64,000 nucleotides of DNA from positions 32,001 to 96,000 of IMG/VR virus record IMGVR_UViG_3300048598_000287; one strand, given 5' to 3'. Both the position numbers and the translations under genes were made by a program. The notes beneath the pieces are model-generated. The model saw nothing but the letters and a program-made list of their open reading frames with translations. It was not told the origin of the DNA and did no database searches. Positions 13,509 to 51,279 of this stretch are shown here, piece after piece (the first letter of the stretch is position 1; every line of letters starts with the position of its first letter). This DNA is from a virus (lineage: Duplodnaviria; Caudoviricetes).

Positions 13509-14831
13509 GTGAACTACCCTCACCCTAAAGGGAGTGGGCTTCTTTTCGTTTCAACGGATCAGCTATGGAAGTTCCCTGCAAGCAGGGGACGGACAGGAGA
13601 TTCTCGACGGAGGGGCGTTCCGCCCGCTCGGCTCTGTGTGACGAGCCGATCAATAGAATGTTCTTTGCGGCATGAATATCCCTGTCCTCAGTCATGCCGC
13701 AGTCACAGGCGAAGATGCGCTTGCTGGGCGGCATATTGAGGAGGGAGCCGCATGCCGTGCACAGCCGGGTCGTGGGTTCCCATTTTGAGAGTTTAAATGA
13801 TGCAAAGCCTTCTTTCTGGATGAGTTTCTGTTTGATTCTTCCGAGGCATGAATGCTGGACGGCGCGGCCATAGCCGCGGCGTCTGCATCTTTGCCAGGAA
13901 GCGATCTGTTCATCCTGGAAATAGACAAAATCATAATTGGCATAGATCCAGTGAATGATCTTGTTGGCCTTGTCATCCCGCACATTGGATATGTGCTGAT
14001 ATTCACGCCGCACGAGCCGGAGAAGATGATTCCGTCGCTTGGATTCCTTATCGTGCTTCAGTGCCAGATGGCGCTGGAGCCGTGTAAGTTTCTCGGTTTC
14101 TTGCTCGGATACATCGAACTTCGTCCCGTCGGACACGGTCACCGTGTCCTTTATGCCCATGTCAATCCCGCAGGATCTGCCCGTCTTGGGCAAATCAGCG
14201 ATTTTAGCAGTCAGGCAAAGCTTTATATGGAAGCCGTCAGGCTTCCTCAATAGGCAGCTGTCATGCAGCTGATATGATTCAAATTTATTGAGATGTTCCA
14301 GACCGTGAACTTTCAGATTAGGAAATCCCGGGATCGTCATCATTGATCCGCTCTTTATCGTCATTCCCTGATGCCGGATCGGAAGGCTGCTCACCTCGCG
14401 GCGGAATCTCAGCTTCCCTACTTTTCCGCCTTTAAGTTTCTTCTTGTTAAGATTCTTAACGTCTTCCTTAAGTTTCTTTATCAGGTTCTGATGGATTCCG
14501 GTGTTGAGCGTGATCTCACGCTCAACCCGATTGTGTTCACGATCAAAACACAATACCTTGCGGTGCTCATTGTATTTATAACCGAAGATATCACCTGTCG
14601 ATATGGCGTCGTTTATCGACCACTTGGCCTCGACGAAGGCATGAGAAAGACGACGCAAGACGGACTTATCCGTCTTGCGCGCATTTACCTTCAAATCTAT
14701 CTGCCTTATCGCTTCCATCATTTATATAATTTATATCCTTGACTTTAATATACATTTTTATTATACTGTTATCTATGGCGGAATTCATCTCCCCGGACTA
14801 AATTCCGGGAGTTTTCTTCCGCAAATCTCCG
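13509..14831 (-). mobile_element. Non-autonomous IS200/IS605-type element carrying only tnpB
   Basis: Right end GAAGCCCACTCCCTTTAGGGTGAGGGTAGTTCAC; left-end hairpin at 14777-14822; candidate TAM TTTAT at 14832-14836; no tnpA. Confidence 0.8.
13525..14721 (-). CDS. tnpB: TnpB RNA-guided endonuclease
   Basis: RuvC-I GIDMG, QDE at RuvC-II, Zn finger CTAC...CDCG, RuvC-III DRDIHAAKNIL. Confidence 0.9.
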   Translation of the reverse strand: MMEAIRQIDLKVNARKTDKSVLRRLSHAFVEAKWSINDAISTGDIFGYKYNEHRKVLCFDREHNRVEREITLNTGIHQNLIKKLKEDVKNLNKKKLKGGKVGKLRFRREVSSLPIRHQGMTIKSGSMMTIPGFPNLKVHGLEHLNKFESYQLHDSCLLRKPDGFHIKLCLTAKIADLPKTGRSCGIDMGIKDTVTVSDGTKFDVSEQETEKLTRLQRHLALKHDKESKRRNHLLRLVRREYQHISNVRDDKANKIIHWIYANYDFVYFQDEQIASWQRCRRRGYGRAVQHSCLGRIKQKLIQKEGFASFKLSKWEPTTRLCTACGSLLNMPPSKRIFACDCGMTEDRDIHAAKNILLIGSSHRAERAERPSVENLLSVPCLQGTSIADPLKRKEAHSL

Positions 14832-14858: not shown

Positions 14859-15056
14859 CCTTGATTTCCGCGTCGCGGCGCTGGAGGTCGGAGTAACATC
14901 ACACAATCTGAACTGGATATTCACCAAGATGGAAAGGCGTTAATAGAATACAACAGGTGTAACATCAGACAAACCGAATCTAATCTTCATCCATTCTTTT
15001 GTACGCATCGCACCGCATGCAGGTGTAACATCAGACAAACCGAATCTAATCTTCAT
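14859..15056 (-). repeat. CRISPR-like mini-array A
   Basis: 35-bp repeats at 15022-15056, 14956-14990 and 14890-14924 (period exactly 66) with unique 31-nt spacers. Confidence 0.85.
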
Positions 15057-15428
15057 CTGATTCTTCATAAATCGTTGAATATCTTCATATTGCAATGAAT
15101 ACTTATCATAAAAAATCTCCCATACACGAGAACAACTTACCAAGAAATGCTTATTTTTTCCGGTTAACTGAATGTCAAACATCCATTCATCATCTGAATT
15201 GCGAAGATCTATACGATGGGTGGGTAGTTTGCTTTCATCACCATATTCATCCAGGAACACCGTATTTGTGCATTGTCCAAGTAGTTCCAGGAACGTCTTA
15301 TCAAATTCTTCCTGAGTAACCTCAGGTTTCTCTAATTCTGCTTTAGAGAACTTGGTGAGCATCAGGGATTTCATCTCATCCGATTCATTATAGATCTTTC
15401 TTGCTTCTTCAATTGTTAATTCTGCCAT
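14940..15428 (-). CDS. Array-associated MAELT-family protein
   Basis: Family leader plus WMFDI/HFWV-type domain; reads in frame through two repeats (MKIRFGLSDVTP x2). Confidence 0.85.
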   Translation of the reverse strand: MAELTIEEARKIYNESDEMKSLMLTKFSKAELEKPEVTQEEFDKTFLELLGQCTNTVFLDEYGDESKLPTHRIDLRNSDDEWMFDIQLTGKNKHFLVSCSRVWEIFYDKYSLQYEDIQRFMKNQMKIRFGLSDVTPACGAMRTKEWMKIRFGLSDVTPVVFY

Positions 15429-15452
15429 GGTAGGCCTCCATATAATATTTAA

Positions 15453-15600
15453 TAATCCAATCCGAATCTAATCGTCACCCTAGAAAACGCTCATGATAAA
15501 TCAATACCTGGTGTAACATCATTCAATCCGAACCGGATATTCACTACATGCTCCGTAGTCGGAACGATGTAATATCATCCAATCCGAACACGGTGTTCAC
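15453..15600 (-). repeat. CRISPR-like mini-array B
   Basis: Repeats 15566-15600, 15510-15544 and partial 15453-15478; spacers 21 and 31 nt. Confidence 0.8.
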
Positions 15601-15972
15601 CTGATTCTTCATAAGTCGTTGAATCGCATTATCTTGCAATGAATACTTATCCTTGAAAATCTTCCATACCCTAAAATAACTTACCCAAAAATGCTTATTT
15701 TTTCCTGTGAAGAGGATGTCAAACATCCATTCATCATTTGGTTTTCTAAGTTCTCTGCGGTTAGTGGGAAGTTTGCTTTCATAACTATTTTCATCCAAGA
15801 ACACCGTCTTGGTGCATTGTCCAAGTAGTTCCAGGAACGTCTTGTCGAATTCTTCCTGTGTAACCGCATGCTTCTCAAGGTCTTCCTTAGTGAACTTAGT
15901 GAGCATCAGGGATTTCATCTCATCCGATGATGCGTAGATCTTTCTAGCTTCTTCGATTGTCAATCCGGGCAT
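15544..15972 (-). CDS. Array-associated MAELT-family protein
   Basis: Paralog; AAGGAG RBS. Confidence 0.85.
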   Translation of the reverse strand: MPGLTIEEARKIYASSDEMKSLMLTKFTKEDLEKHAVTQEEFDKTFLELLGQCTKTVFLDENSYESKLPTNRRELRKPNDEWMFDILFTGKNKHFWVSYFRVWKIFKDKYSLQDNAIQRLMKNQVNTVFGLDDITSFRLRSM

Positions 15973-16000
15973 ATTTTATCTCCTTAATATGATGCAATTA

Positions 16001-16029
16001 AATATAGATATTTAATTGGTCATTGTCAA
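16001..16029 (-). promoter_or_regulatory. Sigma70-type promoter
   Basis: TTGACA-17 nt-TATATT. Confidence 0.75.
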
Positions 16030-16112
16030 CTACAAATGATACCAGAATTCGGATCAATTGGAATAATATGTATATCGGGTTTAATGGCCATTAAATTATT
16101 TATAGTCTCTTT

Positions 16113-16214
16113 GCTGTAACATCATCCAGCCCGAATCTAATCTTCACCATGTATCCGACAAATGTCATAATCCGTCTTGATTGTAACATCATCCAATCCG
16201 AACTGGATATTAAC
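16113..16214 (-). repeat. CRISPR-like mini-array C
   Basis: Repeats 16180-16214 and 16113-16147; 32-nt spacer. Confidence 0.75.
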
Positions 16215-16586
16215 CTGATTTTTCATAAGTCGTTGAATATCAATATCGTACATCGAATAGGTATCCACGAAAATCTTCCATACACGGTAATGACTTACCC
16301 AGAACCGCTTATTTTTCCCGGTGAACTTAATATCAATCATCCATTCGTTATTAGAATTTCTTAGTTCTATCGTGTTTGTGGGAAGATTGCTTTTTTCACC
16401 ATATTCATTCAGGAACGCAATCTTGGTGCATTGACCCAGTAATTTCAGGAACGTCTCGTCGAATTCTTCCTGAGTAACCGCATGCTTCTCAAGGTCTTCC
16501 TTAGTGAACTTGGTGAGCATCAGAGATTTCATCTCATCCGATGATGCATAGATCTTTCTTGCTTCTTCAATAGTCAATTCGGGCAT
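16137..16586 (-). CDS. Array-associated MAELT-family protein
   Basis: Start MPELT with GGAG RBS. Confidence 0.85.
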   Translation of the reverse strand: MPELTIEEARKIYASSDEMKSLMLTKFTKEDLEKHAVTQEEFDETFLKLLGQCTKIAFLNEYGEKSNLPTNTIELRNSNNEWMIDIKFTGKNKRFWVSHYRVWKIFVDTYSMYDIDIQRLMKNQVNIQFGLDDVTIKTDYDICRIHGED

Positions 16587-16626
16587 ATTACATCTCCGTT
16601 GATATCTTAAATATATTAGCCAAGGA

Positions 16627-17043
16627 TTAAACGGGTATTTTTCCATAACGGTATTTAATGAATTTCAAATCATTTTCATCAATATAGCCATCCTGGATGA
16701 GGTTGTTACCGATTGCCTGCTCATCATACCACTTTTCATATGTATCGGGCATATCCCTATTTTTTATATATTCGTCTAAAGTCTCATTATAGCCTTCATA
16801 TTTTTTCCATTCATCGTTGAAAACGAATCCTTTTGCATTTAATTCATGTTCTGAAAGAACGAATTCTTCACACAGGTCAGGTTTTATTATGCAAACCCAT
16901 TGCCACCTAGGTTCAGCATCGCAAGTATAGTTCAGCTGAGAAAGCAAATGCATAGAAGGGAAAATATATTTCGTTCCGGAAAACCGATATACGGGAGCAT
17001 CAAAATATGTGTCTAAAAGTTTACTTTTACATTGTGCTTTCAT
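16627..17043 (-). CDS. Hypothetical protein
   Basis: 138-aa ORF. Confidence 0.65.
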   Translation of the reverse strand: MKAQCKSKLLDTYFDAPVYRFSGTKYIFPSMHLLSQLNYTCDAEPRWQWVCIIKPDLCEEFVLSEHELNAKGFVFNDEWKKYEGYNETLDEYIKNRDMPDTYEKWYDEQAIGNNLIQDGYIDENDLKFIKYRYGKIPV

Positions 17044-17105
17044 AAATAGATACCTTCTGTTTCAATGTTTCCATAGCAGCATGCTAGGGTTTTAGTTAGC
17101 TTCAT

Positions 17106-17180
17106 CTAGATAGTTCTCGCGTATTCAATCGTCAACTCGGTCATGGTAGGCCTCCGTATAATATTTAATTATCCAATCAA
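17106..17180 (-). pseudogene. Relic of the MAELT-family leader and its RBS block
   Basis: GATTGGATAATTAAATATTATACGGAGGCCTACC followed by MTELTIEYARTI*. Confidence 0.7.
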
Positions 17181-17186
17181 ATCCTG

Positions 17187-17450
17187 TTATTCATCCTGGT
17201 ATTTCTTAGATGCATCACATGTTATTGTCGGATAGTTAGGAAACTCATAGAACTTCAGTGGTTTTATGTTTGGTGTGTCAAATGGGCCTCGCAATGCCCA
17301 GTGAATTCCGTCATTGTCGTTCGCCTGTTTCTTCAATTCTTCCAGCGAAAACAAATATTCAATGAGGGCCACCTTTTCCGCATTGCTTAGGGAATCTGAT
17401 GTCATGATTAGGGTCTTCAGTTTTTCTGAACTATTCATATTATCATTCAT
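17187..17450 (-). CDS. Hypothetical protein
   Basis: 87 aa, AAGGA RBS. Confidence 0.6.
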   Translation of the reverse strand: MNDNMNSSEKLKTLIMTSDSLSNAEKVALIEYLFSLEELKKQANDNDGIHWALRGPFDTPNIKPLKFYEFPNYPTITCDASKKYQDE

Positions 17451-17581
17451 TTAATTATCCTTTCCTGGAATATATTTCCAAGTTCAATCTGGTGATTGGT
17501 AATTCAATCTCTATAGGTAAACTATATTTTCTGCGATACCGTTACGATAGGAATTCACGGTACTGTCCGTTTCTGGGTGTT

Positions 17582-17878
17582 CTAATGTGGGAAATGACGT
17601 ATGTCAATATCAACCGATATAGATTTCGCAGATTCGTTAGTTACAATCAATGCATATTGTTCTCTACCGTTAATTATTGTAGATGTGTATTTTGTCACAC
17701 GCATCGACTTAGCAATGGACATGGTGTCAATATCTATTTCAGCATCGCCGGCTATTTTACGGGAATCAATGATATATGCAGAAAATTTTGAGCCCGATAA
17801 TACATTCACCGATGTCCATCCCGTGATAGAAATAGGCAAATTTACGGCGATCAATTTATTAGGACCTAGGATAGCCAT
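17582..17878 (-). CDS. Hypothetical protein
   Basis: 98 aa, GGAGG RBS. Confidence 0.6.
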   Translation of the reverse strand: MAILGPNKLIAVNLPISITGWTSVNVLSGSKFSAYIIDSRKIAGDAEIDIDTMSIAKSMRVTKYTSTIINGREQYALIVTNESAKSISVDIDIRHFPH

Positions 17879-17883
17879 TTAGC

Positions 17884-18306
17884 TCAGCCTCCGCCTTGTA
17901 CACAGTTCGCATACGGTTCGTTAAGTGGATGAATGGATAGCGTACCCCAGGCGTTTGGTTCACGACAAGTACGGGATTTAATCTGTGCCATAGCTTCTTC
18001 GGTAGTATGCGCTATGGCAAATGCCACGCCACGTGTATAAGCTGAGCAAAAATCTGTCCAGACAAATAACCGTAAGTTTTCGTTCATAATAATCTTAGGT
18101 ACTTCATCTGGAATAGTTGGCGCTGAGATAGTCGATCTAGACGATAATCCTTTGAAACCATACCATTTGTCGCGTTTCTGAACGGTTTCCGAATATATAT
18201 CAAGACATCCCTTTAGATATTCTGCCAGAACAAAATCAGGCGTATCCGATTCGTTTTCCTTACTGTACTTATTGATCAGCAATTCAAGCTCATTTTCAAA
18301 TTCCAT
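17884..18306 (-). CDS. Two-domain hypothetical protein
   Basis: ENESDTPDFVLAEYL domain fused to a homolog of 5725-5925. Confidence 0.7.
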   Translation of the reverse strand: MEFENELELLINKYSKENESDTPDFVLAEYLKGCLDIYSETVQKRDKWYGFKGLSSRSTISAPTIPDEVPKIIMNENLRLFVWTDFCSAYTRGVAFAIAHTTEEAMAQIKSRTCREPNAWGTLSIHPLNEPYANCVQGGG

Positions 18307-18333
18307 TATCGTCCTCTATGTAAAATATCAATT

Positions 18334-18531
18334 GATGTGACATCATCCAATCATAACCGGATATTCACTACATGCTCCGTAGTCGGAACGATGTAATATC
18401 ATCCAATCCGAACACGGTGTTCACCCACTGATTGATACATATCCTGATGGAGGAATGTGTTCACCCACTGATTGATACATATCCTGATGGAGGAATGATG
18501 TAATATCATCCAATCCGAACACGGTATTCAC
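18334..18531 (-). repeat. CRISPR-like mini-array D
   Basis: Repeats 18497-18531, 18390-18424 and 18334-18368; first spacer tandemly duplicated (18417-18456 = 18457-18496); second spacer identical to 15545-15565. Confidence 0.85.
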
Positions 18532-18904
18532 CTGATTCTTCATAAGTCGTTGAATCGCATCATCTTGTAATGAATATGTATTCGCAAAAATCTTCCATAT
18601 CCTAAAATAACTTACCCAGAAATGTTTATTTTTTTCCTGTGAAGAGGATGTCAAACATCCATTCATCATTTGGGTTTCTAAGTTCTATACGATTGGTGGG
18701 AAGCTTGCTTTTATAACCATGTTCATTCAGAAACACCGTATTTGTGCATTGTCCAAGTAGTTCCAGGAACGTCTTATCAAATTCTTCCTGAGTAACCTCA
18801 TGTTTCTCAAGTTCACTTTTAGAGAACTTGGTGAGCATCAGGGATTTCATCTCATCCGATGATGTGTAAATCTTTCTTGCTTCTTCAATAGAAATTTCTG
18901 CCAT
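18421..18904 (-). pseudogene. Frameshifted MAELT-family gene
   Basis: A7 tract at 18629-18635 vs A6 in the paralog at 15698-15703 splits the ORF. Confidence 0.75.
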
Positions 18905-18950
18905 AGTAGACATCCTTATAGTTAATCACCAATACGAACATTGCAATCAG

Positions 18951-19095
18951 CCTAGAAAGCGAGCATGATAACTACCTGATGTAACATCAGTCAATCCGAA
19001 CAGAGGGTTCACCTCCCGTTCCATTATGCACGTCCGTGAAACGGGTCCTACAGGCCCCACATTGTAACATCATCCAATCCGAATCTAATCTTCAC
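18951..19095 (-). repeat. CRISPR-like mini-array E
   Basis: Repeats 19061-19095 and 18978-19012; 48-nt spacer; distal spacer related to 15479-15509. Confidence 0.75.
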
Positions 19096-19467
19096 CTGAT
19101 TAGTCATAAGTCGTTGAATATCAATATAGTTCAATGAATAGGTATCCGCTAAAATATTCCATACCCGGAAATTATTTAACCAGAAATGCTTATGTTTTCC
19201 TGTGAAGCAAATGTCAAACATCCAATCGTTATTTGAATTTTTGAGTACTATGCGGTTTGTGGGAAGCTTGCTTTCAACCCAATCTTCATCCAAGAACACC
19301 GTCTTGGTGCATTGTCCAAGTAGTTCCAGGAACGTCTTATCAAATTCTTCCTGAGTAACCTCATGCTTCTCTAATTCTGCTTTAGAGAACTTGGTGAGCA
19401 TCAGGGATTTCATCTCATCCGATTCATTATAGATCTTTCTTGCTTCTTCAATTGTTAATTCTGCCAT
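19048..19467 (-). CDS. Array-associated MAELT-family protein
   Basis: Paralog; AAGGAGG RBS. Confidence 0.85.
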   Translation of the reverse strand: MAELTIEEARKIYNESDEMKSLMLTKFSKAELEKHEVTQEEFDKTFLELLGQCTKTVFLDEDWVESKLPTNRIVLKNSNNDWMFDICFTGKHKHFWLNNFRVWNILADTYSLNYIDIQRLMTNQVKIRFGLDDVTMWGL

Positions 19468-19497
19468 AGTAGGCCTCCTTATATAAGTTAATTAGAT

Positions 19498-19717
19498 AAT
19501 CCGAACTGGATATTCATCTGATTCCAAAGGATCTGAACGGCGGCACGGATGTAATATCATCCAATCCGAACTGGTTATTCATCTATGATATCAATGGGAA
19601 CGTTATTCATGCAAGGTGTAACATCATTCAATCCGAATCTAATCTTCACCCAAGTTTCTGAGCAACCCGTATGATTTTCCTTGGTGTAACATCATTCAAT
19701 CCGAATCTAATCTTCAC
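19498..19717 (-). repeat. CRISPR-like mini-array F
   Basis: Repeats 19683-19717, 19615-19649, 19548-19582 and partial 19498-19517; spacers 33, 32 and 30 nt. Confidence 0.85.
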
Positions 19718-20089
19718 CTGATTCTTCATAAGTTTAGTAATATCATTATCTTGCAATGAATACTTATCCTTGAAAATCTTCCATACCCTTTCAGAACTTA
19801 CCCAGAAATGTGGGTAGTTTCCTATGAAGAGGATGTCAAACATCCATTCATCATTTGGGTTTCTAAGTTCTATACGATTGGTGGGAAGATTGCTTTTATA
19901 ACCATGTTCATTCAGGAACACCGTCTTGGTACATTGCCCAAGAAATTCCAGGAAGATCTTATCGAATTCTTCTTGAGTAACCTCATGCGGTTCAAGTTCA
20001 TCTTTCGTGAACTTAGTGAGCATCAGGAATTTCATCTCATCCGATGATGCGTAGATCTTTCTTGCTTCTTCAATTGTCAGGTCTGGCAT
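19646..20089 (-). CDS. Array-associated MAELT-family protein
   Basis: Start MPDLT with AAGGAG RBS. Confidence 0.85.
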   Translation of the reverse strand: MPDLTIEEARKIYASSDEMKFLMLTKFTKDELEPHEVTQEEFDKIFLEFLGQCTKTVFLNEHGYKSNLPTNRIELRNPNDEWMFDILFIGNYPHFWVSSERVWKIFKDKYSLQDNDITKLMKNQVKIRFGLNDVTPRKIIRVAQKLG

Positions 20090-20117
20090 TGTATATCTCC
20101 TTAATGTGATGTAATTA

Positions 20118-20146
20118 AATATACATTTTTTACACCTCATTGGCAA
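20118..20146 (-). promoter_or_regulatory. Sigma70-type promoter
   Basis: TTGCCA-17 nt-TATATT. Confidence 0.7.
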
Positions 20147-20487: not shown

Positions 20488-21081
20488 TTAATACCACCAT
20501 TCATGTCCATCTGACCTTTTATTATGAATAATGCTCCCATCGGCATCGTACCAATCTTCATGCCCATAGGAATCCTTATAATGAATGCATTTTCCATCGG
20601 AATCGTAATCCCACCAGTGTTCATATCCGTCAGTAAGTTTCTTATGAATGCATTTTCCATCGGAATCATAGTAATACCATATTTCTGATCCGTCGGTATC
20701 CTTATAGCGAATCGGCTTCCCGCTCTCATCAAACCAATGTTCGGATCCGTTGGAATTTTTCGTATAGATCAGTTTTCCATTGGCATCGTACCACCATTCG
20801 AATCCATCTGAGGCCGTATAATGAATAAGATGCCGATTTCCATAGGAATCATATTCATACCATTTTTCAGATCCGTTGGGATACTTCGTATGAATCATGT
20901 TCCCATCGGCATCGTACCACAATTCATTACCCATTAAATCCTTCAGATGACTCGATTTATCAGAGTCCGATGAATCATCGGCTTCAAGGATTTTCTTGGA
21001 GAATTTGGTGAGCATCAGGGATTTCAGCGCATCAGAGTTGTGATAGATATTTCTTGCTTCTTTAATAGTCAATTCCGCCAT
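20488..21081 (-). CDS. MAELT leader fused to WYD repeats
   Basis: MAELTIKEARNIY...TKFSKKILE followed by WYD repeats. Confidence 0.85.
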   Translation of the reverse strand: MAELTIKEARNIYHNSDALKSLMLTKFSKKILEADDSSDSDKSSHLKDLMGNELWYDADGNMIHTKYPNGSEKWYEYDSYGNRHLIHYTASDGFEWWYDANGKLIYTKNSNGSEHWFDESGKPIRYKDTDGSEIWYYYDSDGKCIHKKLTDGYEHWWDYDSDGKCIHYKDSYGHEDWYDADGSIIHNKRSDGHEWWY

Positions 21082-21181
21082 GGTAGGCCTCCTTAAATAA
21101 TGATAAATCATAATTGATATTTAACTATCTTCCATTATGATATGTTGTAGATTCAATTAAAATATATGAAATTCTCCTTTG

Positions 21182-23008: not shown

Positions 23009-23443
23009 ATGGCTGAATTGACAATTGAAGAAGCCCGAAAGATCTACGCAACAACGGATGATATGAAATCCCTGATGCTTACTAAGTTCTCTAAAAGTGA
23101 ACTTGAGAAACATGAGGTTACACAGGAAGAATTCGATAAGACCTTCCTGAGATTACTTGGGCAATGCACCAAGACTGTGTTCCTGGATGAAGCGGGTGAT
23201 GAAAGCCCGCTTCCCACTAACCGTATCGAACTCAGAAATTCAGATAACGAATGGATGTTTGACATCCAGTTCACTGGTAAAAATAAGCATTTCTGGGTAC
23301 ATTATTCTCGGGTATGGTGGATTTTCAAGGATAATGATTCATTGCAATATGAAGATATTGTACGACTTATGAAGAATCAGATGAACTCACGGTTCGGATT
23401 GGCTGATGTTAAACCCCTAATTAAGGAAATCATATTTTTTTAA
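23009..23443 (+). CDS. Array-associated MAELT-family protein
   Basis: Paralog; AAGGAGG RBS. Confidence 0.85.
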   Translation: MAELTIEEARKIYATTDDMKSLMLTKFSKSELEKHEVTQEEFDKTFLRLLGQCTKTVFLDEAGDESPLPTNRIELRNSDNEWMFDIQFTGKNKHFWVHYSRVWWIFKDNDSLQYEDIVRLMKNQMNSRFGLADVKPLIKEIIFF

Positions 23444-23510
23444 CACCCGGTTCGGATTGGGTGATGTTCAATCCATAACGGGATGAATAACATGGTTGGA
23501 TTGGATTATT
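23381..23510 (+). repeat. CRISPR-like mini-array G (degenerate)
   Basis: Repeats at 23381-23415, ~23440-23474 and degenerate 23483-23510. Confidence 0.7.
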
Positions 23511-23532
23511 AACTAATATAAGGAGGCCTGAC

Positions 23533-23961
23533 ATGGCTGAATTGACAATTGAAGAAGCTAGGAAGATCTACGCATCATCGGATGAGATGAAATCGCTGAT
23601 GCTCACCAAGTTCTCTAAAGCCGAATTAGAGAAACACAACCTTACACAGGAAGAATTTGATAAGATCTTCCTGGAATTGCTTGGCCAATGTATTAAGACC
23701 GTGTTCCTGGATAAACACGGTCATGAAAATAAGATTCCTAATAACCGGGTAAGATTAATAGATGCCACTGATAATTGGCTGTTTGATATTCAATTCACAG
23801 GAAAAGATAAGCATTTCTGGGTAAGTAATTCCCGGATATGGAATTGTTTAGCGGATACATATTCATTGAACTATAGTGATATCCAACGACTTATGAAAAA
23901 TCAGATGAACACCCGGTTCGGAATGGGTGATGTTACACCCTTCATTTTTTCACATACGTAG
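23533..23961 (+). CDS. Array-associated MAELT-family protein
   Basis: Paralog. Confidence 0.85.
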   Translation: MAELTIEEARKIYASSDEMKSLMLTKFSKAELEKHNLTQEEFDKIFLELLGQCIKTVFLDKHGHENKIPNNRVRLIDATDNWLFDIQFTGKDKHFWVSNSRIWNCLADTYSLNYSDIQRLMKNQMNTRFGMGDVTPFIFSHT

Positions 23962-24031
23962 CGGAACACGTTGAACACTGGGTTAGGATTAAACCATAAC
24001 GGGATGAATAACATGGTTGGATTGGATTATT
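23905..24031 (+). repeat. CRISPR-like mini-array H (degenerate)
   Basis: Repeat 23905-23939, 31-nt spacer, truncated repeat from 23971 (period 66), terminal block shared with arrays G and J. Confidence 0.7.
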
Positions 24032-24053
24032 AAATAATATAAGGAGGCCTACT

Positions 24054-24482
24054 ATGGCTGAATTGACAATTGAAGAAGCCAGGAAGATCTATGCAACAAC
24101 GGATGATATGAAATCCCTGATGCTCACCAAATTCACTAAGGAAGCCCTTGAGAAGCATGAAGTTACTCAGGAAGAATTCGATAAGATCTTCCTGGAATTG
24201 CTTGGCCAATGCTCCAAGACGGCGTTTCTGAATGAAGTGGGTGATGAAAGCCAGCTTCCCAATAACCGTATAGAACTCAGAAATTCAGATAACGAATGGA
24301 TGTTTGACATCCAGTTCACTGGTAAAAATAAGCATTTCTGGGTACATTATTCTCGTGTATGGAAGATTTTCATGAATACTTATTCGTTGGAAGATGTTGA
24401 TATTAAACTACTTATGAAGAATAAGATACATATTAGGTTCGGATTGGATGATGTTACCCCTTGTAGTTATTGGAAATGTTGA
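24054..24482 (+). CDS. Array-associated MAELT-family protein
   Basis: Paralog. Confidence 0.85.
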   Translation: MAELTIEEARKIYATTDDMKSLMLTKFTKEALEKHEVTQEEFDKIFLELLGQCSKTAFLNEVGDESQLPNNRIELRNSDNEWMFDIQFTGKNKHFWVHYSRVWKIFMNTYSLEDVDIKLLMKNKIHIRFGLDDVTPCSYWKC

Positions 24483-24655: not shown

Positions 24656-26209
24656 ATGGCTGAATTGACGATTGAAGAAGCAAGAAAGATCTACGCATCA
24701 TCGGATGATATGAAATCCCTGATGCTCACCAAATTCACTAAGGAAGACCTTGAAGAGGATTATACATCGTCCTCTTATGATAACCAGAATCACGGGCATG
24801 ATTCCCAGGGTAATGATTTTTGGTGCGATATCAATGGGAACGTAATTCATAAGAAAGCTCCAAATGGATTCGAAGCATGGTTCAATACAGATGGAAAAGT
24901 GATTCATAAGAAGCATTCTGACGGGTTTGAGGAATGGGTTGACTATGATTCTTATGGAAGAACTAATCATGTGAACGATTCCGATGGGTCAGAACGCTGG
25001 TACGAATACAATGCTAATGGGACAATATCACACGCTAAGTTTTCTGATGGGGAGGAATGGTGGTGCAATATCAATGGAAATAAGAGTCATTCCAAGTGGT
25101 CCGACGGATCCGAATCGTGGTACGATGCCAATGGAAATGACATTCATGGAAAAAATTCCGATGGATCGGAATGCTGGCATGATTTTGATAGCAATAAAAA
25201 ACTGATTCATAAGAAGTATTCCAATGGATTGGAAGAGTGGTATGATGCCACGGGGAATATGATCCGGTTGAAAGATTCCCTCGGATATGAAATGCGGTAT
25301 GAATATGATGCCAATGGCCACCTCATGCGCGAGAAGGATTCCTTAGGATGGGAAAAGTGGTGTGAATATGATGCCAACGGGCATCTGATTCACTCAAAGG
25401 ATTCAAATGGATTCGAACGGATGCATGAATATGCTACCGATGGGCACCGCATTCATGAGAAGGATTCGGACGGGCGCGAAAAATGGTATGATGCCAATGG
25501 AAAAATCATTCATTCTAAGTCTTCCGACGGAGTAGAAAAGTGCGAATCATGGTTCGATACCAATGGAAAACTGATTCACTTGAAATGTTCCGACGGTTTC
25601 GAATATTGGTATGATGCCGATGGGGAACTGATCCATTATAAGGATTCCGACGGAGATGAATATTGGTATGATGCCATAGGAACCCTTATGCATAAGAAGA
25701 TTTCCGATGGATCAGAAGAATGGTATGAATATAATGCTAATGGAAGGCTAATTTATGCAAATAATTCCGATGGATTTGAATCTTGGTATGAATATGGAGC
25801 CAATGGGCGAATGATTCATAATAAGACTTACGATGGATCAGAAGAATGGTATGCTACCGATGGGCACCGCATTCATGAGAAGGATTCGGACGGTTTCGAA
25901 TATTGGTATGATGCCAATGGGAATATCATTCATGAAAAGGATTCCGATGGATCAGAAGGTTGGCGGGATTTTGATAACAATAAAAAATTGATTCATAAGA
26001 AGTATTCCGACGGATTAGAACACTGGTATGATGCCAATGGGAACGTAATTCATAAGAAAAATCCAAATGAATTAGAATATTGGTGGAAATATGATGCCGA
26101 TGGGAAATTGAGTAATGAAATATGTTCTGATGGGTCAACCCGATGGTATTCTTATGATGCCCATGGGAATATGATTCATATGAAGATTTCCAATAGAACA
26201 TCTATTTGA
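24656..26209 (+). CDS. MAELT leader fused to a long WYD-repeat domain
   Basis: 517 aa, about 20 repeats; internal DNA duplication at 25431/25851. Confidence 0.9.
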   Translation: MAELTIEEARKIYASSDDMKSLMLTKFTKEDLEEDYTSSSYDNQNHGHDSQGNDFWCDINGNVIHKKAPNGFEAWFNTDGKVIHKKHSDGFEEWVDYDSYGRTNHVNDSDGSERWYEYNANGTISHAKFSDGEEWWCNINGNKSHSKWSDGSESWYDANGNDIHGKNSDGSECWHDFDSNKKLIHKKYSNGLEEWYDATGNMIRLKDSLGYEMRYEYDANGHLMREKDSLGWEKWCEYDANGHLIHSKDSNGFERMHEYATDGHRIHEKDSDGREKWYDANGKIIHSKSSDGVEKCESWFDTNGKLIHLKCSDGFEYWYDADGELIHYKDSDGDEYWYDAIGTLMHKKISDGSEEWYEYNANGRLIYANNSDGFESWYEYGANGRMIHNKTYDGSEEWYATDGHRIHEKDSDGFEYWYDANGNIIHEKDSDGSEGWRDFDNNKKLIHKKYSDGLEHWYDANGNVIHKKNPNELEYWWKYDADGKLSNEICSDGSTRWYSYDAHGNMIHMKISNRTSI

Positions 26210-50657: not shown

Positions 50658-50913
50658 AATAATTCAATCATATTATTCATACCGTTATAGCGGTAACATC
50701 ATCCAATCCTAACGTGGTGTTCACCGAGCAGTCGACCAGCTCCACGCTGCAACATCATCCACTCCGAATCTAATCGTTGCCCCAGTTTAGAATAGTACTA
50801 CGACATCCGTTTGGTGTAACATCATTCAATCCGAACTGGATATTCATCATCGGGAAATCCGGCTTAAGTCCGGAGTTTGGTGTAACATCATTCAATCCGA
50901 ACTGGATATTCAT
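50658..50913 (-). repeat. CRISPR-like mini-array J
   Basis: Repeats 50879-50913, 50813-50847, 50746-50780 and 50690-50724 plus a degenerate terminal block; spacers 31, 32 and 21 nt. Confidence 0.85.
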
Positions 50914-51279
50914 CTGATTTTTCATAAGTCGTTTAATATCCTCATCTTCCAATGAATCCGTATCCTTGAAAATCTTCCATACACGGTAATAACTTACCCA
51001 GAAACGCTTATTTTTTCCGGTGAACTGAAGGTCAAACAGCCATTCATTATTTGAATTTCGAAGTTCGATTCTGTTAGTGGGAAGCCGGCTTTCATTCCCC
51101 TTTTCATCAAGGAACCTCTTCTTGGTGCATTGCCCAAGTAGTTCCAGGAACGTCTTGTCGAATTCTTCCTGAGTAACACCTTCTAGTTCACTTTTAGAGA
51201 ACTTGGTAAGCATCAAAGCTTTAAGGGCATCCGATTTTTTATAGATCGTTCTTGCTTCTTCAACAGTCAGCTCTGCCAT
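50770..51279 (-). CDS. Array-associated MAELT-family protein
   Basis: Reads through two repeats (MNIQFGLNDVTPN x2). Confidence 0.85.
   Translation of the reverse strand: MAELTVEEARTIYKKSDALKALMLTKFSKSELEGVTQEEFDKTFLELLGQCTKKRFLDEKGNESRLPTNRIELRNSNNEWLFDLQFTGKNKRFWVSYYRVWKIFKDTDSLEDEDIKRLMKNQMNIQFGLNDVTPNSGLKPDFPMMNIQFGLNDVTPNGCRSTILNWGND

Follow-up and report, generated by a model that had tools for sequence, protein, structure and literature searches.

Arrays B and D of this giant sewage phage are probably two copies of one CRISPR-type mini-array, of which D later gained a 31-nt spacer (S31) beside its gene. The first repeat (R1) of each array forms part of the 3' end of a protein gene, and this gene end would act as the leader side. 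The two loci would have exchanged a block of about 100 nt, which begins with the last 28 nt before R1 and continues through R1 and the spacer S20 to nt 15 of the next repeat. After the exchange, the D lineage would have gained one 31-nt spacer adjoining the gene, and the 36-nt repeat would have been duplicated, which is the hallmark of integration of Cas1-Cas2 type. The spacer and 9 nt of repeat would then have been doubled as a 40-bp tandem, at once or very soon after the gain. The present work provides a strain-level polarity test of the B/D pair, the proof of the tandem and evidence of head exchange between paralogs.

The window, the whole stretch of 64,000 nucleotides that was analysed, corresponds to bases 32001-96000 of a linear viral record of 277,197 bp in IMG/VR, with a completeness of 66% by CheckV. 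The DnaB-like helicase of the phage has just 26-28% identity to the counterparts of T4-like phages, and the stretch 15300-19100 is present in wastewater metagenomes from 13 studies (2018-2025). The window carries ten paralogous genes of about 140 aa each, which form a small-protein family of MAELT type. All 25 copies of the 36-nt repeat in the genome sit behind these ten genes. When the 20-nt repeat core was searched with up to 3 mismatches, 25 matches were found in the window versus 0.01 expected, and no copy in repeat context was found at this threshold elsewhere in the 277-kb genome. R1 is coding sequence in every paralog and encodes the final conserved residues (V/M)xxxFGLxDVT. Downstream of R1, each array has one to three more repeat copies with unrelated spacers between them, giving about ten arrays of 2-4 repeats per genome, one behind each paralog.

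The arrays show 36-nt direct repeats with spacers mostly of 30-32 nt, as in a CRISPR array, and the repeat period is 66-68 in arrays A, C, F, J and K and in the relative L023. Spacers between identical repeats are 30-32 nt long. The deviating spacers are 20-22 nt or 47 nt, and repeat subtypes are mixed within arrays; three of the 20-22-nt spacers separate repeats of different subtypes. The two repeats nearest the gene are identical in arrays A, F, K and J, as expected if R1 is copied at each gain, and those farther away differ or are degenerate. The relative L023 (60% amino acid identity) is laid out alike, with a period of 66 and a last repeat that has degenerated and sits over the ribosome-binding site of the following gene. 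In IMG/VR contigs of 33-36 kb (L021 3001-3414, and L022), a T4-like phage fragment carries a single-copy homologue with 64% amino acid identity. The L021 homologue ends in ...FGLDEKIIT* and has no array behind it, so the gene family is wider than the array habit. Taken together with the array of L023, this array-less homologue suggests that the repeat probably started as an ordinary gene end.

On the sense strand, array B reads gene, R1, S20, R2, 30-nt spacer and degenerate R3, and array D reads gene, R1, S31, 9 nt of repeat, S31, R2, S20 and R3 (Table 1). The repeat-spacer-repeat segment common to both (15509-15601 versus 18333-18425) is 93 nt long with 95% identity. An earlier note on this DNA had described a shared 21-nt string (15545-15565 and 18369-18389) as a spacer that is first in B and second in D. 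The order is correct, the spacer is 20 nt long by the 36-nt repeat boundaries, and these are its only two copies in the genome. The extra gene-proximal spacer of D and its duplication, which the same note had claimed, were confirmed by the repeat boundaries and by Tandem Repeats Finder (18417-18497, period 40, 2.0 copies, 100% matches). The 40-bp unit is composed of the 31-nt spacer and the first 9 nt of the following repeat. In D-R3, the 3' half has 5 mismatches and the invariant TTCGG core is broken.

Table 1. Positions of the genes, repeats and spacers of arrays B and D in the window.
Feature	Positions	Strand	Description	Source
Gene B	15544-15972	-	142 aa, MAELT-type small-protein family	ORF list, family alignment
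Array B R1	15566-15601	-	36 nt, within coding sequence; 36/36 to D-R2	
Spacer S20, array B	15546-15565	-	20 nt; first after gene	
Array B R2	15510-15545	-	Other subtype than R1; homologous to D-R3	
Array B distal spacer	15480-15509	-	30 nt; 29/30 to own DnaB-like helicase gene	
Array B R3	15444-15479	-	Terminal, degenerate; overlaps ribosome-binding site of gene A	
Gene D	18421-18913	-	Two ORFs in record; 160 aa intact in other assemblies	
Array D R1	18497-18532	-	Within coding sequence; 1 nt off D-R2 and B-R1	
Spacer S31, gene-proximal copy	18466-18496	-	31 nt, D-specific; codes start of protein tail	
Repeat 5' end	18457-18465	-	9 nt; non-spacer portion of 40-bp tandem unit	
Spacer S31, second copy	18426-18456	-	Identical to gene-proximal copy	
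Array D R2	18390-18425	-	Identical to B-R1	
Spacer S20, array D	18370-18389	-	Second spacer	
Array D R3	18334-18369	-	Terminal; first 15 nt = B-R2; 3' half degenerate	
Non-family gene	17884-18306	-	140 aa, after array D; marks end of homology with B locus	

The final 64 nt of genes B and D, R1 included, have 98.4% identity versus 88% over the whole genes. Together with S20 and 15 nt of the next repeat, they make a block of about 99 nt with a single mismatch within genes whose bodies are 12% diverged, which indicates that the B and D loci share a recently exchanged block. The ten paralogs (14940-20146, 23009-24482, 50849-51279) are mosaic. For successive 50-100-nt segments of gene B, the nearest paralog is C (93%), E (91%), D (92%), F (98%) and D (98%) in turn. 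These mosaics point to frequent recombination within the family.

The 40-bp tandem is real and not an assembly artefact. Tandem copies cannot be counted in the contigs of the wastewater runs, where unitigs break at repeated 31-mers, and protein tails were used instead. The tandem-specific tail is present in twelve distinct proteins of other (ENA) assemblies, one of them on 20 contigs, and the single-copy tail is absent among the S31-type proteins from ENA assemblies. With twelve tails of the duplicated form and none of the single-copy form, the tandem is present wherever S31 was seen. For the shared segment, unitigs from the unique flank stop at 18384 in three of the four runs. This is precisely the point at which identity to B sets in, and a stop there is expected only when the sample contains both contexts. 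Further unitigs span 15399-15560 and 18468-18556, and the distal part of D and the junction of S31, R1 and the gene are each covered by contigs. The earlier note had named an assembly artefact as the finding that would overturn its claim. That the assembler made the shared segment or the tandem is hardly conceivable against these data, although one site of gene D in this record is probably an error or a private variant. There, an extra T in a run of seven T (18629-18635) splits the gene. Contigs from three of the four wastewater runs (X1, X10 and X13) have six T at this site, and the intact 160-aa protein is common in ENA assemblies. The frameshift is private to this record and is probably either a true variant or a homopolymer error.

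The array states of other strains were read from the protein tails of other assemblies, not from DNA. Orthologous arrays were compared across strains, as the earlier note had proposed, and three different heads were found on an identical D body (0/124 amino acid differences each), with a fourth on a near-identical body. One protein (P0144) has S20 first. Another (P0121), found on 20 contigs, has S31 with the tandem first. A third (P0134) has a different 30-nt unit (TFGSVGSLLM), followed by a repeat and then S20. In the fourth type (P0124 and P0128, 2-6 differences), a further unit ([F/S]MMRPFDAAL) and a repeat precede S31 with the tandem. The same nesting recurs in five other arrays (WGL, FIFSHT, NGCRSTILNWGND, TGACPQSF and AHQPGDREGK), where each spacer is first in some strains and second in others, and two different units were seen ahead of the shared spacer in the case of WGL. 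In total, six nested series could be read from the protein tails, and R1 equals R2 in arrays A, F, K and J and matches it at 35 of 36 positions in D. More units of 30-38 letters with repeats on both sides turn up in contigs of four wastewater runs, each from a different study. At least three of them (X1/X7; X10; X7/X10) have no counterpart in this genome, and two match it imperfectly, at 191146 (2 mismatches) and at 2760 (4 mismatches). These results show that the arrays change faster than the genes.

The heads also move between paralogs, as seen in one protein (P0149) whose body is that of B without a difference (0/124) and whose head is that of D. Given such head exchange, P0144 could be a D gene that received the head of B and not the ancestral state. 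In one contig of run X1, a new unit lies between two repeats of B-R2 type, a repeat that is internal in this genome. Nested and branching heads are the pattern predicted by polarised gain, and on this comparison a stepwise gain beside the gene in the D lineage is likely, over a loss in B. For the B/D pair of this genome itself, gain is the direction that we infer from these strains. The earlier note had left the choice between polarised gain next to the gene and loss by repeat-repeat recombination. This interpretation is supported; the strain series favours gain, and loss and head exchange also occur.

A loss in B would mean that the ancestor of the shared block had S31 ahead of S20 and that B lost one unit by recombination between R1 and R2. 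Spacer deletion through repeat recombination is established for CRISPR arrays, the nearly identical D-R1 and D-R2 are good deletion substrates, and the mosaic gene bodies show that homologous recombination is frequent in the family. However, such a loss leaves unexplained why identical D bodies have either of two units (S31 or TFGSVGSLLM) in front of S20 and why a third unit precedes S31. Loss alone would require an ancestor with all of the units, followed by precise proximal deletions. B-R1 has the R2 variant at the sole position where the two D repeats differ, so that the crossover of a loss would need to lie within the first 6 nt of the repeat. We consider the loss in B unlikely. Import by exchange is quite unlikely as the whole account of the D array. 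In that case the whole head including S31 was copied to D from a paralog or a co-infecting strain by homologous recombination or gene conversion, and nothing was acquired at D. The protein with B body and D head and the near-identical block of about 99 nt between B and D speak for such copying, but it merely relocates the acquisition, since S31 must at one time have been placed before S20, and nine of the twelve sequences with the S31 head have D-type bodies.

The arrays could also have nothing to do with CRISPR, the repeats being leftover gene 3' ends from unequal recombination of tandem paralogs and the spacers being junction debris. The repeats of different paralog subtypes within one array, the three 20-22-nt spacers between different subtypes, and the array-less single-copy homologue with the same FGLD motif end in a more distant phage fit this origin. 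In contrast, unrelated pieces of 30-32 nt from distant genes (helicase, YD-repeat) are not placed between identical 36-nt copies by unequal recombination. Nor does such recombination account for the period of 66-67 in five arrays and L023, or for new units that differ among strains with identical genes. This origin is very improbable. The mixed repeat subtypes do count against the mechanism of stepwise gain, since pure copying of R1 does not explain them, and recombination among paralogs must be added to R1 copying. In a further reading, which we regard as doubtful, the phage has in these arrays an adaptive memory that is self-contained, with the gene 3' end as both leader and first repeat. 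A non-Cas1 integrase, phage-encoded or of an unrecognised kind, would insert the units, the transcripts would direct an effector of the phage or the host against competing giant phages, and each acquisition would give a new C-terminal tail.

Sources could be assigned to some of the spacers of the gain reading, and most spacers are without a match. The distal spacer of array B matches the DnaB-like helicase gene of the phage itself at 29 of 30 positions (genome 228365-228394) and is antisense to that gene. A spacer of array F matches a YD-repeat gene at 30 of 31 positions. For S31, the matches are partial. Its first 19 nt are the same as genome 16680-16698, which is intergenic between two YD-repeat genes (E about 2e-5). 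In all four runs, a contig with at least 255 nt of unrelated sequence shares 29-30 nt of S31. This contig resembles a protospacer in co-occurring DNA, which might belong to a rival phage or to the missing third of the same genome. All spacer matches to the own genome are imperfect, with 1-4 mismatches or 19 of 31 nt, and the S31 match is fuller in the co-occurring DNA. No match was found in IMG/VR to the full S31, its 29-nt part, the repeat core or the 30-nt foreign flank. Among GenBank phages, S31 gave chance-level matches only (E 0.8).

Two readings of the spacer sources were rejected. The 16.68-kb site is not supported as a deleted homologue of the foreign protospacer, because the 30-nt foreign flank aligned to it with a score lower than the null mean, which leaves only the exact match of 19 nt. 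The antisense orientation does not hold as a rule, since two spacers follow it and one fails. In array E, a diverged homologue of the helicase spacer of B is located at about 18950-18977. The YD/RHS-repeat genes, which also supply spacers, encode proteins (20488-21111 on the minus strand, 24656-26209 on the plus strand, and genome 15.8-19 kb) that share an N-terminal module of about 33 aa (MAELTIEEARKIY...) with small array-linked genes. An ENA contig of 791 nt (P0015) shows the gene, R1 and the TFGSVGSLLM unit, followed directly by the antisense frame of a YD-repeat gene. This is either an assembler jump at a shared 30-mer or a real recombinant between spacer and source.

Translation passes from R1 into the first spacer. 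In gene B, the last 12 folded-frame residues (VNTVFGLDDITS) come from R1 and the 6-aa tail FRLRSM comes from S20. The C-termini are ...ITSFRLRSM* for B and ...ITSFLHQDMYQSVGEHIPPSGYVSISG* for D, and without the tandem the D tail would read ...SVGEHRVRIG. The nearly identical gene 3' ends with different tails were thus as the earlier note had described them, and its statement that the array event rewrites the protein tail follows directly from the translation of B and D. In all 36-nt repeats (for example 19683-19718), the two non-coding frames carry a stop, with TGA at positions 3-5 and TAG or TGA later. Read-through of a spacer will therefore terminate in the repeat behind it, except where the spacer measures exactly 30 nt and is open. 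The AlphaFold model of the small protein is weak (pLDDT 65), and the repeat-encoded residues and the tail are its least confident part (pLDDT 32-44), suggesting that the tail is probably a disordered by-product. As translation runs from R1 into whatever follows, each array event would replace this predicted disordered C-terminal tail.

Gene B had no match in Pfam, NCBIfam or PHROG. For the small protein, the best hit of Foldseek against PDB had an E of 0.02 and a TM of 0.2, the best Z of VIA-align wide was 3.6, and the ESM Atlas gave no usable match. In a codon-level test of nucleic-acid constraint, the share of major codons was 0.965 in the repeat core versus 0.83 in the gene body, a difference from just 6 columns, too small a number to carry weight. 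No match was found among GenBank phages with the DNA of the B locus or in IMG/VR with the neighbour gene. The neighbour gene found nine distant relatives in metagenome contigs, none with repeats.

To the profiles of cas1, cas2 and cas4 (PF01867, PF09827, PF01930), no match was found in the 277-kb record, which is 66% complete. When one genome per species was scanned for the exact repeat core (185,579 species), six single matches were obtained, about the number expected by chance, and no array; such a scan would miss a diverged host repeat or an unsampled host. Both negative results count against the mechanism of stepwise gain. Two divergent genes of the TnpB family, RNA-guided nucleases by profile match, are present in addition to the ten arrays, and both also match type V models weakly. 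One is located at 13525-14721 on the minus strand, 168 nt behind the last repeat of array A (guided_TnpB 99 bits). The other lies just outside the window at genome positions of about 96.1-97.4 kb (L020 1369-2667, minus strand; guided_TnpB 68 bits). Near both genes, no repeat or anti-repeat was above background (local alignment scores of 8-10 versus a null mean of 10.3). With ten arrays, two TnpB genes and no anti-repeat, a linkage of TnpB/Cas12 type was not found.

An end-to-end hairpin of the repeat was rejected. There was no covariation, 76.5% of cells were paired versus 78.9% in shuffles, and 494 of 500 shuffles were at least as high. One pair of the hairpin is unpaired in 14 of the 22 sequences, and the folding energies are inside the range of the shuffles. 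A scan for sigma-70 promoters and terminators gave fewer sites than in shuffles, and the Rfam and tRNA searches gave nothing.

Judged by their sequences, the phage arrays behave as a CRISPR array does: spacers are apparently acquired at the leader end, the terminal repeat decays, old spacers are shared and new ones are private. They have in common with CRISPR-Cas arrays, in which Cas1-Cas2 acquires at the leader end, the 36-nt direct repeats with spacers mostly of 30-32 nt, growth at one fixed end by new units that each bring a second copy of the neighbouring repeat, and a last repeat that is degenerate. In both, old spacers are shared, new ones are strain-specific, and some sources can be identified. 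Unlike in CRISPR-Cas arrays, the first repeat of the phage is coding and its leader is a gene, each of the about ten arrays in the genome has only 2-4 repeats and these are of mixed subtypes, no cas genes were found in the 277-kb record, and no hairpin is supported. Off-target ('neo-CRISPR') integration of spacers at repeat-like genomic sites was reportedly described by Nivala et al. in 2018 as a rare event in a laboratory E. coli strain. An integrase that accepts and duplicates a non-CRISPR site would explain how a coding 3' end became the first repeat. In contrast to such rare laboratory events, the phage feature is conserved, multi-copy and evolving in a gene family. The term 'neo-CRISPR' occurs in 10.1101/148544 and PMC6698737.

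The mini-CRISPR arrays of Sulfolobales viruses are short and Cas-less, and their spacers match close relatives or near-self sequences, which suggests inter-virus conflict (Medvedeva et al. 2019, PMC6858448). The phage arrays are likewise short, Cas-less, carried on a viral genome and with near-self spacer matches. However, the Sulfolobales mini-arrays have the host's own repeats in non-coding DNA, whereas the phage repeat is a conserved gene end and no host array was found in the 185,579 species genomes. Huge phages reportedly have arrays as well as compact CRISPR-Cas loci, in many cases with no acquisition module (Al-Shayeb et al. 2020, PMC7162821). The present phage is similar in having a very large genome with arrays and no acquisition module found. 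The arrays of those huge phages are conventional, intergenic and usually beside an effector gene, and a fusion to a gene or one array per paralog is not known to be described for them. Arrays linked to TnpB, intermediates from transposon to CRISPR, have a parallel in the TnpB-family gene behind array A and in the second one just past the window. In contrast to them, there are ten arrays for two TnpB genes, no anti-repeat near either, and no TnpB within 3.7 kb of the L023 array. The literature search found no paper that describes an array with a coding first repeat.

If the gain reading of the B/D pair is true, a CRISPR-type array can live in the end of a protein gene and still acquire spacers, in a virus without recognisable adaptation genes. 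This would bear on how new CRISPR arrays arise from non-CRISPR sequence and on where the Cas-less arrays of large phages obtain acquisition and interference. Together with its strain variants, the B/D pair would form a concrete and datable acquisition series. As the phage recurs in 13 wastewater studies, the steps of this series could be tracked in sewage sampled over time. Because heads are traded between paralogs, the order of the spacers is harder to read as a history.

Array E, upstream of gene D, showed further variation. Its first spacer (19014-19060) is 47 nt long instead of about 30 nt and contains an inverted repeat (CCCGTT...AACGGG). At this site, some strains have a 31-nt spacer and an extra repeat (tail AHQPGDREGK in P0012). 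At the degenerate end of array E (18921-18985), 7 other letters replace 65 bases in contigs of runs X1, X7 and X10, which is a strain-level rearrangement at the array end.
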